Positions 59,612-63,417 of a DNA stretch of 64,000 nt are shown here, in pieces. How positions within the stretch are numbered: position 1 is the stretch's first letter; each line of letters starts with the position of its first letter. A program made the translations under genes and the position numbers. The notes beneath the pieces are model-generated. The model worked only from the letters and a program-made list of their open reading frames with translations. It was not told the DNA's origin and searched no databases. Origin of the DNA: Candidatus Babelota bacterium (GTDB lineage: Bacteria; Babelota; Babeliae; Babelales; JABDEC01); NCBI GenBank assembly GCA_013286795.1, contig JABDFA010000008.1, forward strand, positions 7,283-71,282, in the 5' to 3' direction.

Positions 59612-60874
59612 TTATCCTACCCATTGATTTCCCCATCCTCGGTATAATTCATTAACAAAATTTTGCCAATCTTTTTTAGTTTTTATTTTTTTTCTAAACT
59701 TTGATACAAAAAAATCATTGGGGTATATCACAGGCTTAATAGGTATATTACCTTTCCAAATTATATCGAATTGTCTTTGTGAATTTACTTTTCCTACGTA
59801 GATAGGTCTATATGCATTATTATTTTCACCATCGATTTGAAGAATACCGTCAGGTGCATTGAAAACAATTTCAGGTAATGTCTTCTTGACCAAATCTGTT
59901 TTTGTTGAATAAATTTTTTTTACTGCATTTGCCCATAAATAAACTCCACAATATGCTGCTTGCATTGTATCACTTGTTACTTTGCTTTTACCAAACTTAT
60001 CTTTTACCTTGAATACAAACTCTCTATTTTCTTTTGAATCCAATGATTGAAAATAGCTCCAACAAGAATATGTACCTTTAACATTTTCAATTTCCATTTC
60101 TTGTAGTTCAGTTTCTGAGATACTAAATGACATTACATTTATGTCCAATCCTTTTTTTGTAAGAAGATCGATTTCTTTGAAAAATTTAATATTACCTTCA
60201 TCAGAAAGAGAATTTATTACAACATCAGGTTTTGTTTCTACTATTTTTTGAACCATTTTATCAAAATTTTCATGGGATAAATTTATATATTCATTTCCTA
60301 CAACTTTTGCACCAATTCCTGGTGCAAATTCTGCAATTGTTTCATTGGTTAATTTTGTATAAATAGTATCTGGTCCGACTAAAAATATTTTTTTTCCTAA
60401 ATTATCTATACTCCATTTTATAGCAGGAATAGCCTGTTGATTTGTTGTAGAATCTGTATAAATAATATTATTGGATGTTTCTATACCTTCCCATTGAACT
60501 GGATAAAAAAGAAGTATATTATATTTTTCTACAACATCCTTAACTGTTTTTCTACTACTAGAGGTCCAACAGCCAAAAATTACTTCTACATTTTTTTCTT
60601 TAATTAGTTTTTCGGCTTCTTTTGCAAATATTAAAGGGTCAGATTTTCCATCAGCTAATATAGGTTCTAATTGTCTTGATAAAACTCCACCACGTCTATT
60701 TATTTCAGAAATGGCAAGAATTGTAGCATCAATAACATTTGCTTCTGTAAAAGTCATGGGCCCTGTTCTAGAGTGTAATATACCAACTTTGATAGAGTTG
60801 CTTTTTTTTTGTTTTATAATTTGTAAAAATATTATGAATGTAATTATCATAATTATTATTTTACTTATTTTCAT
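59612..60874 (-). CDS. UrtA/AmiC-family (type I, urea/short-amide-type) periplasmic binding protein, membrane-tethered, paralogue 3
   Basis: N-terminal TM helix, then IKVGILHSRTGPM...EPILADGKSDP..FAKEAEKLI...VEVIFGCWTSSSRK.V...E.YN.LLFYPVQWEG.E.S.NIIY...NQQAIPA..W....GKK.FLVG.D..Y...; ends WGNQWVG. Confidence 0.8.
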   Translation of the reverse strand: MKISKIIIMIITFIIFLQIIKQKKSNSIKVGILHSRTGPMTFTEANVIDATILAISEINRRGGVLSRQLEPILADGKSDPLIFAKEAEKLIKEKNVEVIFGCWTSSSRKTVKDVVEKYNILLFYPVQWEGIETSNNIIYTDSTTNQQAIPAIKWSIDNLGKKIFLVGPDTIYTKLTNETIAEFAPGIGAKVVGNEYINLSHENFDKMVQKIVETKPDVVINSLSDEGNIKFFKEIDLLTKKGLDINVMSFSISETELQEMEIENVKGTYSCWSYFQSLDSKENREFVFKVKDKFGKSKVTSDTMQAAYCGVYLWANAVKKIYSTKTDLVKKTLPEIVFNAPDGILQIDGENNNAYRPIYVGKVNSQRQFDIIWKGNIPIKPVIYPNDFFVSKFRKKIKTKKDWQNFVNELYRGWGNQWVG

Positions 60875-60877
60875 GGA

Positions 60878-62155
60878 TTAGTTCGCTTCCCATTGACCTC
60901 CCCATTTTTTGTATAAATTGTCTAAAAACTGGGTCCATTCTATTTGGTTTTTCTTATTTTTTATAAATTTAGAAATAAAGAAATTATTTGGAAAAGCTAT
61001 TGGTTCGACAGGCACACCTGATTGCCAAATGATTTCAGATTTTTTATTGTTATGGATCTGTATTATATATACAGGATTCCAGGTATTGCCATCTTGTTCT
61101 ATTTTTACTATTCCTTGTGGAGAATCAAATACAAAAGTTGTTAATTTTTTTATAACTTGACTAGTTTCAGTTGTATCGGCTAATCTAACAGCATTTTCCC
61201 ATGAATAAACTCCCATATAGGCAGTTTGCATAGCATCATTTACTTCTCTATGTTTGCCAAATTTAGATTTAAACTTTTTTAAGAATTCTATATTTTCTTT
61301 TGAAGTAATATGTTCTGTATATGACCAACATAAATAAATACCTTTAATATTACTTGTATCTAATAGATTGAAATCATTTTCAGACAAGCTAAATGAGACA
61401 ATATTTATGGGATAATCTTTAGTTTGAATTTTATTTAGTTCTTTAAAAAATGGTATGTTTCCAGAGCCATTAATAGTATTTATTATTATATCAGGTTTAG
61501 TGATTGAAATTTTTTGAATAATTTTTGTAAAATTTTCATCTTTGAGATTGAGATATTCATCGCCAACTATAGTTGCACCAATTTTTGGAGCAATTTCTTT
61601 GATGATTTCATTGGCGGCTCTTGGATAAATATAATCAGATCCAACCAAAAAAATTTTTTTACCGACATTATTAATTAGCCAAGCAATGGCTGGTAGAATT
61701 TGTTGGTTCGGTGTCAAATCTAAATATATTATATTTTTGCTTTCTTCAAGACCTTCATATTGTACCGGATAAAATAATAACTTATTATATTTCTCAATTA
61801 TAGGTTTTACAGCTTTTCTGCTGGCCGATGTCCAACATCCAAAAAGTGCCTCTACCTTATTTTCAGTTATAAGTTTTTCAGCCTCTTTGGCAAAAGTGTC
61901 AGGATCTGATTTGCCATCTGCTAAAATCGGTTCAATTAGTTTTTTTAGTACTCCGCCATTAGTATTAATCTCGTTTATAGCAAATAAAGTTGTATCAATA
62001 ACTGGAGTTTCACTAAATGCAAGTGGACCCGTTCTAGAATGTAATATTCCAATTTTAATAACTCTTTGCCTTGAAGAATTAGAATATGAAAAAAGATATA
62101 AATAGGATATTACAATTGTTAGAATTAATACTATTATTTTTCTATTTATTGCCAT
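60878..62155 (-). CDS. UrtA/AmiC-family periplasmic binding protein, membrane-tethered, paralogue 2
   Basis: Same pattern (IKIGILHSRTGPL...FGCWTSASRKAVKPIIEKYNKLLFYPVQYEGLEES.NIIY; ends WGGQWEAN). Start is ATG 62155 (GGGGA 5 nt upstream) or ATG 62167, overlapping the upstream gene by 10 or 22 nt. Confidence 0.8.
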   Translation of the reverse strand: MAINRKIIVLILTIVISYLYLFSYSNSSRQRVIKIGILHSRTGPLAFSETPVIDTTLFAINEINTNGGVLKKLIEPILADGKSDPDTFAKEAEKLITENKVEALFGCWTSASRKAVKPIIEKYNKLLFYPVQYEGLEESKNIIYLDLTPNQQILPAIAWLINNVGKKIFLVGSDYIYPRAANEIIKEIAPKIGATIVGDEYLNLKDENFTKIIQKISITKPDIIINTINGSGNIPFFKELNKIQTKDYPINIVSFSLSENDFNLLDTSNIKGIYLCWSYTEHITSKENIEFLKKFKSKFGKHREVNDAMQTAYMGVYSWENAVRLADTTETSQVIKKLTTFVFDSPQGIVKIEQDGNTWNPVYIIQIHNNKKSEIIWQSGVPVEPIAFPNNFFISKFIKNKKNQIEWTQFLDNLYKKWGGQWEAN

Positions 62156-63417
62156 TTGTTTCCCCATCTTTGTGGCATTTCAGCAAGATATTTTATCCAT
62201 TCTTCTTCTGTTCTTGCTTTTTTATTAAACTTTGATAAATATAAATTACTTGGCATGATTACAGGTTCTACCGGAATTTTAGATTCCCATTCTATATTAA
62301 AATTTTTGGCTTTATCAGCTTTACCAATGAATACAGGACTCCAAATATTTCCATTTTGAGTAACTTGAAATATCTCGGAAGGTCCATTGAAAATTATTTT
62401 TTTCAAACTGGGAATAACTTCTTTTGTATCTAGAGAGCCGGCATTTTTTACTGCTAATGCCCATAAATTAACACCATAATATGCTGATATCATCGAAGCG
62501 CTTAAATTTTTGGTATATCCAAATTTTGCTTTAAATCTTTTAATAAAGTTAAAATTTCTTTTTGATGGTATAGATTGAAGATACAATGTGCAAATATAAG
62601 TATTTGCGATATTAGTTAGATCAATTAAATTGAATTCATTTTCAGATAAACTAAACGATATAGTATTTATTTTTATTCCTTTTTTTGCTAAAAGATTTAA
62701 TTCTTTAAAAAATAAGATATTACTTAATCCACTGATACTATTTATTATTAAATCCGGTTTTGTTTGTTCAATTTTTTCAATTACTTTGTCAAAGTTTTCA
62801 GATCCAAGCGGGATAAGTTCTGCGCCTACAATGTCCACTCCTATTTGAGGGGCAAACTCTTTTATTAAATCATTTTCAGCTACTGGATATGCATAGTCCG
62901 ATCCGACTAAAAATATTTTTTTACCTAAATTATTCAAGCCCCAGGCTACACTAGGGATAGCTTGTTTGTTTCCACATAGGGACATATAAATTACATTCGT
63001 GCTTTGTTCAAGCCCCATATATTCAGCAGGGTAAAAAAGTAATTTATCATATTCTTCTACTACTTCCTTTACAGCTTTTCTTGCTGCTGAGGTCCATGTT
63101 CCAAAAATTACTTCAACTTTTTTTTCTTTAATTAAAATCTTTGCTTCTTTTGCAAATATTTCAGGGTCAGATTTGCCATCAGCTAAAATAGGTTCAATTT
63201 GTTTGCCAAAAAGTCCACCATTACTATTGATTTCATTTATAGCAAATAAAGTCATACTTATTATTTGTGCTTCGCTAATTGCAAGTTCACCAGTTCTGGA
63301 ATGTAATATTCCTACCTTGATGGTTTCTATTTTTTTTGGATAAAGTATAAAATAAATGTAACTTATTATAATTCCAACTATTATAGCTGTAATAAAACTT
63401 CTATTTTTTATTAACAA
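62146..63417 (-). CDS. UrtA/AmiC-family periplasmic binding protein, membrane-tethered, paralogue 1
   Basis: Same pattern (IKVGILHSRTGEL...FGTWTSAARKAVKEVVEEYDKLLFYPAEYMGLEQSTNVIY; ends RWGNKWQ). First gene of the operon. Confidence 0.8.
   Translation of the reverse strand: MLIKNRSFITAIIVGIIISYIYFILYPKKIETIKVGILHSRTGELAISEAQIISMTLFAINEINSNGGLFGKQIEPILADGKSDPEIFAKEAKILIKEKKVEVIFGTWTSAARKAVKEVVEEYDKLLFYPAEYMGLEQSTNVIYMSLCGNKQAIPSVAWGLNNLGKKIFLVGSDYAYPVAENDLIKEFAPQIGVDIVGAELIPLGSENFDKVIEKIEQTKPDLIINSISGLSNILFFKELNLLAKKGIKINTISFSLSENEFNLIDLTNIANTYICTLYLQSIPSKRNFNFIKRFKAKFGYTKNLSASMISAYYGVNLWALAVKNAGSLDTKEVIPSLKKIIFNGPSEIFQVTQNGNIWSPVFIGKADKAKNFNIEWESKIPVEPVIMPSNLYLSKFNKKARTEEEWIKYLAEMPQRWGNKWQ

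Follow-up and report, generated by a model that had tools for sequence, protein, structure and literature searches.

Three UrtA-type binding proteins with anchor-like N termini as candidate co-receptors of a predicted dCache-dCache-pLGIC channel in a Babelota bacterium

Binding proteins and ion channels have been associated in bacteria before. Tasneem, Iyer, Jakobsson, and Aravind (2005; PMC549065) described bacterial ligand-gated ion channels of the pentameric class (pLGICs) fused to type I periplasmic binding protein (PBP-I) domains or to MCP-N plus Cache domains, as well as operons of pLGIC genes with stand-alone PBP-II or Cache genes, and proposed that these modules cooperate in small-molecule sensing. 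Binding proteins are also known to stimulate dCache and other receptors, including chemoreceptors, kinases, cyclic di-GMP enzymes, and Ser/Thr kinases, as reviewed by Matilla et al. (PMC8050422); the term “ion channel” is absent from that review. As of 2025, DeCLIC was described as the only pLGIC with a characterized N-terminal domain (PMC12664993). Here we describe a locus on a contig of a “Candidatus Babelota” bacterium (JABDFA010000008.1), of which a stretch of 64,000 nucleotides, hereafter called the window, was analyzed. Three paralogous UrtA-like genes, named A, B, and C, lie next to a gene for a 1016-aa membrane protein that carries two dCache domains and a predicted pLGIC module. We assign a probability of about 0.68 to the reading that A, B, and C are ligand-sensing co-receptors of this dCache-dCache-pLGIC and not parts of an ATP-binding cassette (ABC) importer.

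The three collinear, head-to-tail paralogues of 420 to 429 aa that the original prediction had described are borne out by minus-strand open reading frames (ORFs) at 59612-63417, and the sequence strings it had quoted (FGCWTSSSRK, FGCWTSASRK, and FGTWTSAARK) are all present, as are the three N-terminal hydrophobic stretches. A, B, and C share 51 to 53% pairwise identity. Pfam family Peripla_BP_5 matches each of them end to end, with E values of 3e-105 to 5e-124 and scores of 353 to 415 bits (cut-off, 27) over profile positions 1 to 355/359 of 363. With the UrtA model TIGR03407, A, B, and C score 383.0, 404.0, and 335.6 bits, all below the curated cut-off of 492.75 bits. The AlphaFold2 (AF2) model of B (predicted local distance difference test score [pLDDT], 90.5) has a two-lobed alpha/beta fold that matches the structures of UrtA, AmiC, and LivJ. 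The 120 top homologues are ~420 aa long and 43 to 54% identical, and several are named “urea ABC transporter substrate-binding protein.”

Among solved structures, the nearest relatives are, in order, 8TG1, the cyanobacterial UrtA structures 8HIC, 7S6E, and 7S6F, and then AmiC. The first of these, a periplasmic urea-binding protein of Caldicellulosiruptor saccharolyticus, matches A, B, and C with 338 to 353 bits and superposes on the B model with a target-normalized TM-score of 0.95 and a root mean square deviation of 1.8 Å (42% identity in the Foldseek alignment); its alignments end short of the Trp-rich tail of A, B, and C. The UrtA structures share fold and family with the three proteins (240 to 267 bits; query-normalized TM-score of 0.81 with the B model). 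Unlike ABC-type UrtA, however, A, B, and C fall below the TIGR03407 cut-off and have no urtBCDE genes in the window. AmiC of Pseudomonas aeruginosa (1PEA) belongs to the same branch of the superfamily, with weaker scores than UrtA (152 to 157 bits). Like A, B, and C in the reading preferred here, AmiC is a sensor and not a transport component. According to the literature it is cytoplasmic and acts on the antiterminator AmiR, whereas A, B, and C carry an N-terminal hydrophobic helix, and no AmiR-like or amidase genes were seen near them.

The 1016-aa neighbor is composed, in order, of a first transmembrane (TM) helix, dCache 1, a TM hairpin, dCache 2, a second TM hairpin, and a pLGIC subunit. 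Its hydropathy profile shows TM1, a 275-residue loop, a hairpin, a 285-residue loop, another hairpin, a loop of ~200 residues, and four closely spaced TM helices. The two large loops, searched separately, match dCache_1 with E values of 2.7e-8 and 1.5e-9, and the whole protein scores 57.6 bits (cut-off, 45). The C-terminal module contains the sequence YPFDKQKIEIDLEYP, which resembles the Pro/Cys-loop of pLGICs, followed by a pre-M1 Arg, an M1 Pro, and four TM helices. Direct searches of Pfam (including Neur_chan), NCBIfam, and Protein Data Bank (PDB) sequences with the full protein or its C-terminal 317 residues identified no channel family, and a word-indexed homologue search returned only one relative. 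With an exhaustive HMMER search, the module was traced to 1180 cluster representatives, in which it is either stand-alone (~340 aa) or preceded by one (~700 aa) or two (~1000 to 1060 aa) dCache domains.

A profile built from 13 sequences of the C-terminal module matches GLIC (E value, 3e-8), and the alignment spans the YPFD loop, the pre-M1 arginine, the M1 proline, M2, and M3. The AF2 model of the module (pLDDT, 82.7; predicted TM-score, 0.76) consists of a beta-sandwich of nine strands and then four helices, for which Foldseek returned DeCLIC, GLIC, ELIC, sTeLIC, and GABA-A and glycine receptors with a probability of 1.0 and TM-scores of ~0.7. On the strength of profile and fold, the neighbor is thus predicted to be a divergent subunit of the pLGIC type that carries two dCache domains on its N-terminal side, and its topology would be self-consistent, with both dCache domains and the channel ectodomain extracytoplasmic. 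By inspection, neither a clear −1′ Glu nor a PAR motif for ion selectivity was seen in M2. DeCLIC (the 6V4S family; 7Q3H, 9FTG), which is among the top structural matches, is likewise a prokaryotic pLGIC whose N terminus is extended by a large periplasmic portion. Its extension, however, is made of two jelly-roll lobes contiguous with the ectodomain, while that of the window protein is made of dCache domains flanked by additional TM helices.

Gene context links the UrtA-like proteins to dCache sensors. All binding-protein homologues with a readable downstream gene are encoded directly upstream of a dCache_1 membrane protein, and no ABC transporter genes were found beside them. The downstream product is a 945-aa protein with two loops and a pLGIC, the same architecture as in the window, at locus L002; a dCache-HAMP histidine kinase at L003, L072, L074, and L075; and a dCache-HAMP-PAS protein at L073. 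At L005, product P0107 is itself a binding-protein-dCache fusion and is followed by a dCache hybrid kinase. The contigs of L076 and L077 stop before the downstream context. The arrangement expected of a co-receptor, a binding-protein gene beside a dCache membrane protein with no transporter genes, was therefore found in the window and at L002, L003, L005, and L072 to L075. The description of A, B, and C as orphans could not be upheld: the genes abut the dCache-dCache-pLGIC gene, and their subfamily is paired with dCache sensors, not with urtBCDE.

The two dCache domains of the channel protein have different kin. A BLAST search with dCache 1 against all ORFs of 75 loci gave nine hits (E values of 3e-8 to 7e-23), and all nine are proteins encoded directly downstream of UrtA-like genes, namely, the L002 channel and the kinases of L003/L004, L005/L006, and L072 to L075. 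None of the 60-odd other dCache-pLGICs in these loci was matched by dCache 1; it is dCache 2 that matches their single dCache domain, together with the second loop of the L002 channel. Against the representatives of the channel family, dCache 1 matches only the first loop of 34 proteins (945 to 1132 aa), and dCache 2 matches the second loop of those 34 as well as the sole dCache of the ~700-aa class. These match patterns imply that the window protein is an ordinary dCache-pLGIC with an added dCache of the binding-protein-partner type. As far as sequence comparison can tell, the UrtA-like gene and the dCache 1 type occur as a pair regardless of whether a kinase or a channel provides the output.

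We also approached the association from the channel side. A four-sequence alignment of the channel module, scanned against 185,579 species genomes, identified 62 loci from many phyla (0.93 Mb), none of them in the window organism's own genome. Five UrtA-family genes are present at these loci; each is either immediately next to the channel gene or fused to it, and the rest of the flanking DNA contains no others (Poisson P < 1e-4 at a background of 0.2 to 0.4 expected genes and 2e-3 at the highest background tried, 0.9). At L040 and L054, the UrtA-like gene overlaps the channel gene on the same strand. A Chloroflexota metagenome-assembled genome (MAG) (L050:8831-13678; JBCCFC010000124.1) encodes a single 1616-aa protein with dCache, pLGIC, Peripla_BP_5 (E value, 1.5e-137), and SBP_bac_8 domains. 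In P0236 and P0255, a dCache-pLGIC is followed, after M4, by Bmp/PnrA-like and ABC_sub_bind domains. In the literature consulted, we found no description of channels with two C-terminal Venus-flytrap domains. On metagenome contig Ga0315338_1001260 (L070:6815-9184), a 790-aa ORF combines a Ser/Thr kinase domain and a single TM helix with an ectodomain of the UrtA-like Peripla_BP_5 type that bears the Trp-rich tail; judging from its domains, the product appears to be a receptor kinase equipped with a sensor of the urea type. Since no further TM helix follows the fusion point, the UrtA-like domain of the fusions should be extracytoplasmic. A metagenome scan with the three paralogues yielded three loci, too few for statistics.

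The remaining two of the five adjacencies, at the cyanobacterial loci L021 and L067, were downgraded as support, because the UrtAs there are canonical-type lipoproteins encoded convergently to the channel. At L067, in a Scytonema MAG, the UrtA gene is preceded, with overlap, by a gene for a PBP_like_2-family binding protein and by one for a tetratricopeptide repeat (TPR) protein (12320-13366 and 13523-15694, both minus strand); several binding proteins are thus clustered beside a dCache-pLGIC.

The relatives of A, B, and C that are paired with kinases differ in score from those linked to channels: the histidine kinase-associated proteins exceed the TIGR03407 cut-off, and the channel-linked ones do not. 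P0007, P0023, P0033, P0047, P0071, and P0019 have an intact urea pocket and score 528 to 538 bits. The first five of these come from L003 and L072 to L075, where they are encoded upstream of dCache-HAMP kinases or the PAS protein with no urtBCDE nearby. Some of these proteins are named “urea ABC transporter substrate-binding protein” by NCBI; for the kinase-paired ones, this name is likely a systematic annotation error, and they may represent an unstudied urea-sensing two-component family.

A, B, and C each have a single hydrophobic segment, within residues ~2 to 29 (Kyte-Doolittle 19-mer score, 2.2 to 2.4), and no other. Only 7 to 10 residues separate it from the first strand of the domain, and residues 2 to 31 of B form one helix in the AF2 model. 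The lipobox Cys is absent from all three N termini, and A and C lack a small −3/−1 pair directly past the hydrophobic core. Among the 120 homologues, an N-terminal hydrophobic 17-mer occurs in 114 and a lipobox-like motif in only 9; no AXA-type site was found in the homologues inspected, in which aromatic residues close the hydrophobic segment. The N termini, in agreement with the original prediction, therefore look like membrane anchors, whereas a 24-residue signal peptide has been reported for P. marinus UrtA.

At the other end, all three proteins keep the predicted tail, W..(F/Y)L..(L/M)...WG.(Q/K)W, which turned out to mark a subfamily rather than UrtA. Of the 120 closest members of the subfamily, 112 have its consensus, EW..FL..LY..WG..W, as do all dCache-associated copies whose C terminus is on the contig. 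The ABC-type UrtA structures 7S6E and 8HIC lack it and end instead in WNQFEP.SKGYACDW...KGEKYK, and a PDB search with the tail consensus found nothing. The idea that the tail is a universal UrtA feature was ruled out by canonical UrtA and by the channel-adjacent cyanobacterial copies; by its distribution, it appears to mark the dCache-associated subfamily and not UrtA in general. In the AF2 model of B, the tail is a confident helix (residues 408 to 421; pLDDT, ~91 to 94), and the tail helix is amphipathic (hydrophobic moment, 0.37 to 0.58). A 10-residue insertion before the tail, PN[DN]FF.SKF..., is common to A, B, C, P0002, and the L002 protein, and the copies that bear it are those that either accompany the two-dCache channel or share synteny with the window.

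The urea contacts of P. marinus UrtA are W120, S122, Y141, Q144, E146, Y190, F192, N246, and S274. F192 is the one contact among them that is not conserved, and binding is reduced or abolished in mutants of S122, Q144, Y190, N246, and W120 (PMC10392092). At these nine positions (P. marinus numbering, with the chain offset verified), B reads W S Y Q E Y Y N S and thus holds all eight conserved contacts. A reads W S Y Q E T Y S S, with the changes Y190T and N246S, and C reads W S Y E M Y Y S S, with the changes Q144E, E146M, and N246S; AmiC, with Y S Y P E Y Y V T, differs from all three. The pattern W S Y Q E Y [F/Y] N S is found in 116 of 120 sequences (A, B, C, and 117 relatives); the four that deviate are A, C, P0002, which is C-like, and P0027. 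Cleaved signals, canonical urea pockets, and a urtBCDE operon had been named in advance as what would speak against the original prediction, and of these only a canonical pocket was found, in B.

A close relative (L076/L077; 28% GC) has its binding-protein genes in the same DivIC-flanked position. It encodes P0002, which is 60% identical to C and in which the C-like pocket recurs (E at 144, a small or hydrophobic residue at 146, and S at 246). Directly after the C-like copy, L077 carries an orthologue of A (85% identical) that keeps both pocket substitutions. In a neighbor-joining tree, A, B, C, and P0002 form one clade. Because the relative has both a C-like copy and an A orthologue, the duplication, as predicted, is old and predates the split between the two species. 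In L076 and L077, a nitroreductase gene (L076:948-1526; L077:62-640) stands between the DivIC-like gene and the first binding-protein gene, and no B-type copy is found between the C-like gene and the A orthologue, so that the set of paralogues varies among close relatives.

A and C have lost residues at which mutations weaken or eliminate the binding of urea by UrtA (PMC10392092), which could also mean that both are decaying, redundant copies of a functional urea binder B, with pockets under relaxed selection, and the C type does diverge faster than the A type (60% versus 85% identity to the copies of the relative). We regard this as very improbable. None of the three ORFs is truncated or disrupted, every motif that defines the fold is kept, and the C-like pocket recurs in P0002. 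The substitutions in A are identical in its orthologue, and the ratio of nonsynonymous to synonymous substitution rates (dN/dS) for this pair is 0.126 over 341 codons (dS, 0.87); among A, B, and C themselves, synonymous sites are saturated at ~50% protein identity. Conservation of the A pocket together with this ratio argues that the altered pocket is maintained by selection. Ligand specificity has thus probably diversified among the three proteins, as had been suggested. From the pocket residues, B most likely binds urea, and A and C would bind other small polar ligands; the Q144E change in C may point to a ligand that is cationic or forms hydrogen bonds in another way.

The main rival to the co-receptor reading sees in A, B, and C the usual substrate-binding subunits of an ABC importer (urtBCDE or HAAT family) whose other genes lie elsewhere, their adjacency to the channel being incidental. 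The strong resemblance to UrtA and to a proven urea-binding protein, the full urea pocket of B, and the NCBI names of close relatives that pass the TIGR03407 cut-off would all fit an importer, and only 64 to 78 kb of the genome is in view. Gene context, scores, and subfamily signatures nevertheless point away from it. The window holds no ORF with an ABC ATPase motif, the relatives with a readable downstream gene all precede a dCache sensor and not urtB, and A, B, and C lie below the UrtA cut-off. They have a tail and an anchor that ABC-type UrtA lacks, the adjacent dCache 1 is of the binding-protein-partner type, and UrtA-like domains are fused to channels and kinases. Taken together, these observations disfavor the importer, which we consider quite unlikely.

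Several points weigh against A, B, and C being co-receptors. Since the histidine kinase-associated relatives pass the UrtA cut-off, sequence by itself cannot part sensors from transport proteins. A urtBCDE operon may be present in the genome beyond the 64-kb window. Context for the two-dCache channel class comes from two loci only, the window and L002. Two of the five adjacencies found in the genome scan (L021 and L067) are convergent and may be coincidental, and with 5 of 62 channel loci having such a neighbor, a UrtA-like partner is not generally needed. As regards the anchors, B and A contain candidate signal peptidase sites (SYS|N in B and SNS|I in A, the latter 7 residues past the core), and Lys-rich flanks make the positive-inside rule ambiguous. 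Co-transcription of the four genes is deduced from their spacing, and contact between the binding proteins and the channel is a step that we infer.

In the mechanism that we propose, A, B, and C would be co-transcribed with the downstream channel and serve as its sensing partners. The N-terminal TM helix would hold each Venus-flytrap protein at the outer face of the inner membrane, so that all three stay within a few nanometers of the membrane; the earlier suggestion of tethering close to the channel fits with the position of the pLGIC gene next to A. A liganded, closed binding protein might then dock on dCache 1 of the channel, probably through the Trp-rich C-terminal helix of the subfamily; both this helix and the lineage-specific insertion might form contacts or sit at the membrane interface. 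Docking would shift the gating equilibrium of the pentamer, and several chemical inputs could thereby be converted into one ion flux. We hold the claim that a bacterial Cys-loop-type channel is gated, at least partly, by tethered Venus-flytrap proteins docking on a dCache adaptor only tentatively, at somewhat less than even odds. A one-to-one match of the three binding proteins to three periplasmic modules was dropped, because the L002 channel has a single binding protein.

Alternatively, the binding proteins might be co-expressed with the channel without docking on dCache 1, either as ligand concentrators or buffers, which might hand urea-like molecules to pockets of the dCache domains or the pLGIC ectodomain, or as signaling components with another partner. 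A role in “preliminary concentration” was proposed by Tasneem et al. (PMC549065) for fused or operonic binding-protein domains. Single-dCache channels also have adjacent or fused UrtA-like proteins (L040, L054, and L050), and therefore a dCache 1-type domain is not always needed. The co-inheritance of UrtA-like genes and dCache 1 across kinases and channels is, however, most simply explained by direct recognition, and LuxP-LuxQ and HptA-HptS work by docking (PMC8050422). We judge such non-docking roles unlikely and retain co-receptors that act through dCache 1 as the preferred reading.

The layout of the locus is summarized in the table. The genes run from C to the channel on one strand, with an overlap of 22 nt between C and B and gaps of 3 nt between B and A and 13 nt between A and the channel gene. 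Independent gene callers recovered the same three binding-protein genes, with slightly later starts for A and B. The set is bordered by the pLGIC gene and the DivIC-like gene. From its position, the intergenic region upstream of C is presumed to be the promoter region of a four-gene operon. No terminator-like sites were found on the minus strand between the four genes, in a scan that has little power at 27% GC, and a consensus scan counted 69 promoter-like sites versus 69.7 expected, which is uninformative in such AT-rich DNA.

Table. Coordinates of the binding-protein genes, the channel gene, and their parts in the window
Feature	Position	Strand	Description
Intergenic region	63418-63535	.	118 bp, between C and a divergently transcribed DivIC-like gene
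Paralogue C	62146-63417	-	423 aa; TTG start after AAGGA; UrtA-family type I binding protein
Paralogue B	60878-62167	-	429 aa; 425 aa from alternative ATG
Paralogue A	59612-60874	-	420 aa
Channel gene	56548-59598	-	1016-aa membrane protein
dCache domain 1	58687-59511	-	residues 30-304; binding-protein-cognate type
dCache domain 2	57664-58518	-	residues 361-645; channel type
pLGIC module	56551-57501	-	residues 700-1016; predicted beta-sandwich ectodomain and M1-M4
Hydrophobic anchors	A residues 2-20; B 11-29; C ~7-25		from hydropathy; anchor-like

Other features of the window are as follows. The next gene on the channel's strand, which follows after 138 nt (55075-56409, minus strand), encodes a 444-aa protein with a signal-like N terminus, a DUF5092 match, and Sel1/TPR repeats; at L002, the gene past the channel is on the opposite strand, and its product is unlike this protein. 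A tRNA-Met gene (anticodon CAT; 54842-54918, minus strand), the sole Rfam match in the window, lies between the Sel1-like gene and a gene for a CT398-like zinc-ribbon coiled-coil protein. A Na+/H+ antiporter (Pfam Na_H_antiporter; 21566-23167, minus strand) is encoded 33 kb from the channel, with no link implied; Tasneem et al. (PMC549065) reported that a Microbulbifer pLGIC shares an operon with a Na+/H+ symporter. The 432-aa ORF at 10418-11716 (plus strand) joins a TrmD tRNA (m1G37) methyltransferase domain with a Methyltrn_RNA_4 domain, a second S-adenosylmethionine-dependent RNA methyltransferase domain. The 223-aa predicted membrane protein at 51827-52498 (plus strand) has a zinc-protease-like HELGH (HExxH) motif and no Pfam family in the gene table of the contig, and a 419-aa ORF (4838-6097, plus strand) gives weak WD40 beta-propeller matches, all below the Pfam cut-offs. 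Between 24000 and 46000, a plus-strand cluster with EF-G-, EF-Tu-, and RpoA-type genes has strongly positive GC skew (0.2 to 0.33) and 32 to 36% GC; in the region of A, B, C, and the channel, GC is ~25 to 28% and the skew is close to zero or negative. The periplasmic domain of a YidC suggests that the host is a diderm.

If the channel is indeed gated by tethered proteins that dock on dCache 1, three paralogous sensors with different pockets would give one channel several chemical inputs, and a binding protein with its cognate dCache would be a portable cassette, used in histidine kinases as well as ion channels. It would also be a prokaryotic, noncovalent counterpart, built on a pLGIC, of the Venus-flytrap-plus-channel logic of ionotropic glutamate receptors. 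The co-receptor reading would lend a further case to the argument that bacteria had already brought together the sensory modules found in animal neurotransmitter receptors. Under it, a widespread group of “urea ABC transporter substrate-binding proteins,” defined by TM anchor, Trp-rich tail, and dCache partner, would move from transport to signaling, its transporter annotation being perhaps systematically wrong. Soluble ectodomains and a prokaryotic channel would make a tractable system for studying accessory periplasmic control of pLGIC gating, and the three pockets, one urea-like and two remodeled, a natural series for the specificity and engineering of urea and amide sensors.

Binding-protein-dependent dCache receptors are already known, as are pLGICs fused to or in operons with binding proteins. 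LuxP-LuxQ, HptA-HptS, ChvE-VirA, and BasB-BasT, the last of which pairs a Peripla_BP_6 protein with a dCache-like transducer in Halobacterium, have a binding-protein gene beside a dCache-type receptor gene and no transporter genes (PMC8050422), as in the window. In these known systems, the binding protein is the ligand-recognition subunit (PMC8050422); the likeness of the window to them is one of genes. Their outputs are a kinase, a chemoreceptor, or a cyclic di-GMP enzyme, whereas the window would have a pentameric ion channel as its output, and unlike them it has three paralogues of the urea/amide family, each with its own putative TM anchor. No paper on UrtA-type proteins paired with dCache sensors was found in the literature searched. 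In the pLGICs of Tasneem et al. (PMC549065), PBP-I domains occur only as fusions, and the operon partners are PBP-II proteins; in the window, stand-alone PBP-I proteins of the UrtA type, apparently anchored, are present in triplicate, and this sensor set appears to be new. The window channel further differs from those pLGICs in having two dCache domains parted by TM hairpins, the first of which belongs, by its matches, to a binding-protein-partner lineage common with histidine kinases. This two-dCache architecture and the subfamily signature of anchor plus Trp-rich tail likewise appear to be new relative to the systems described so far.

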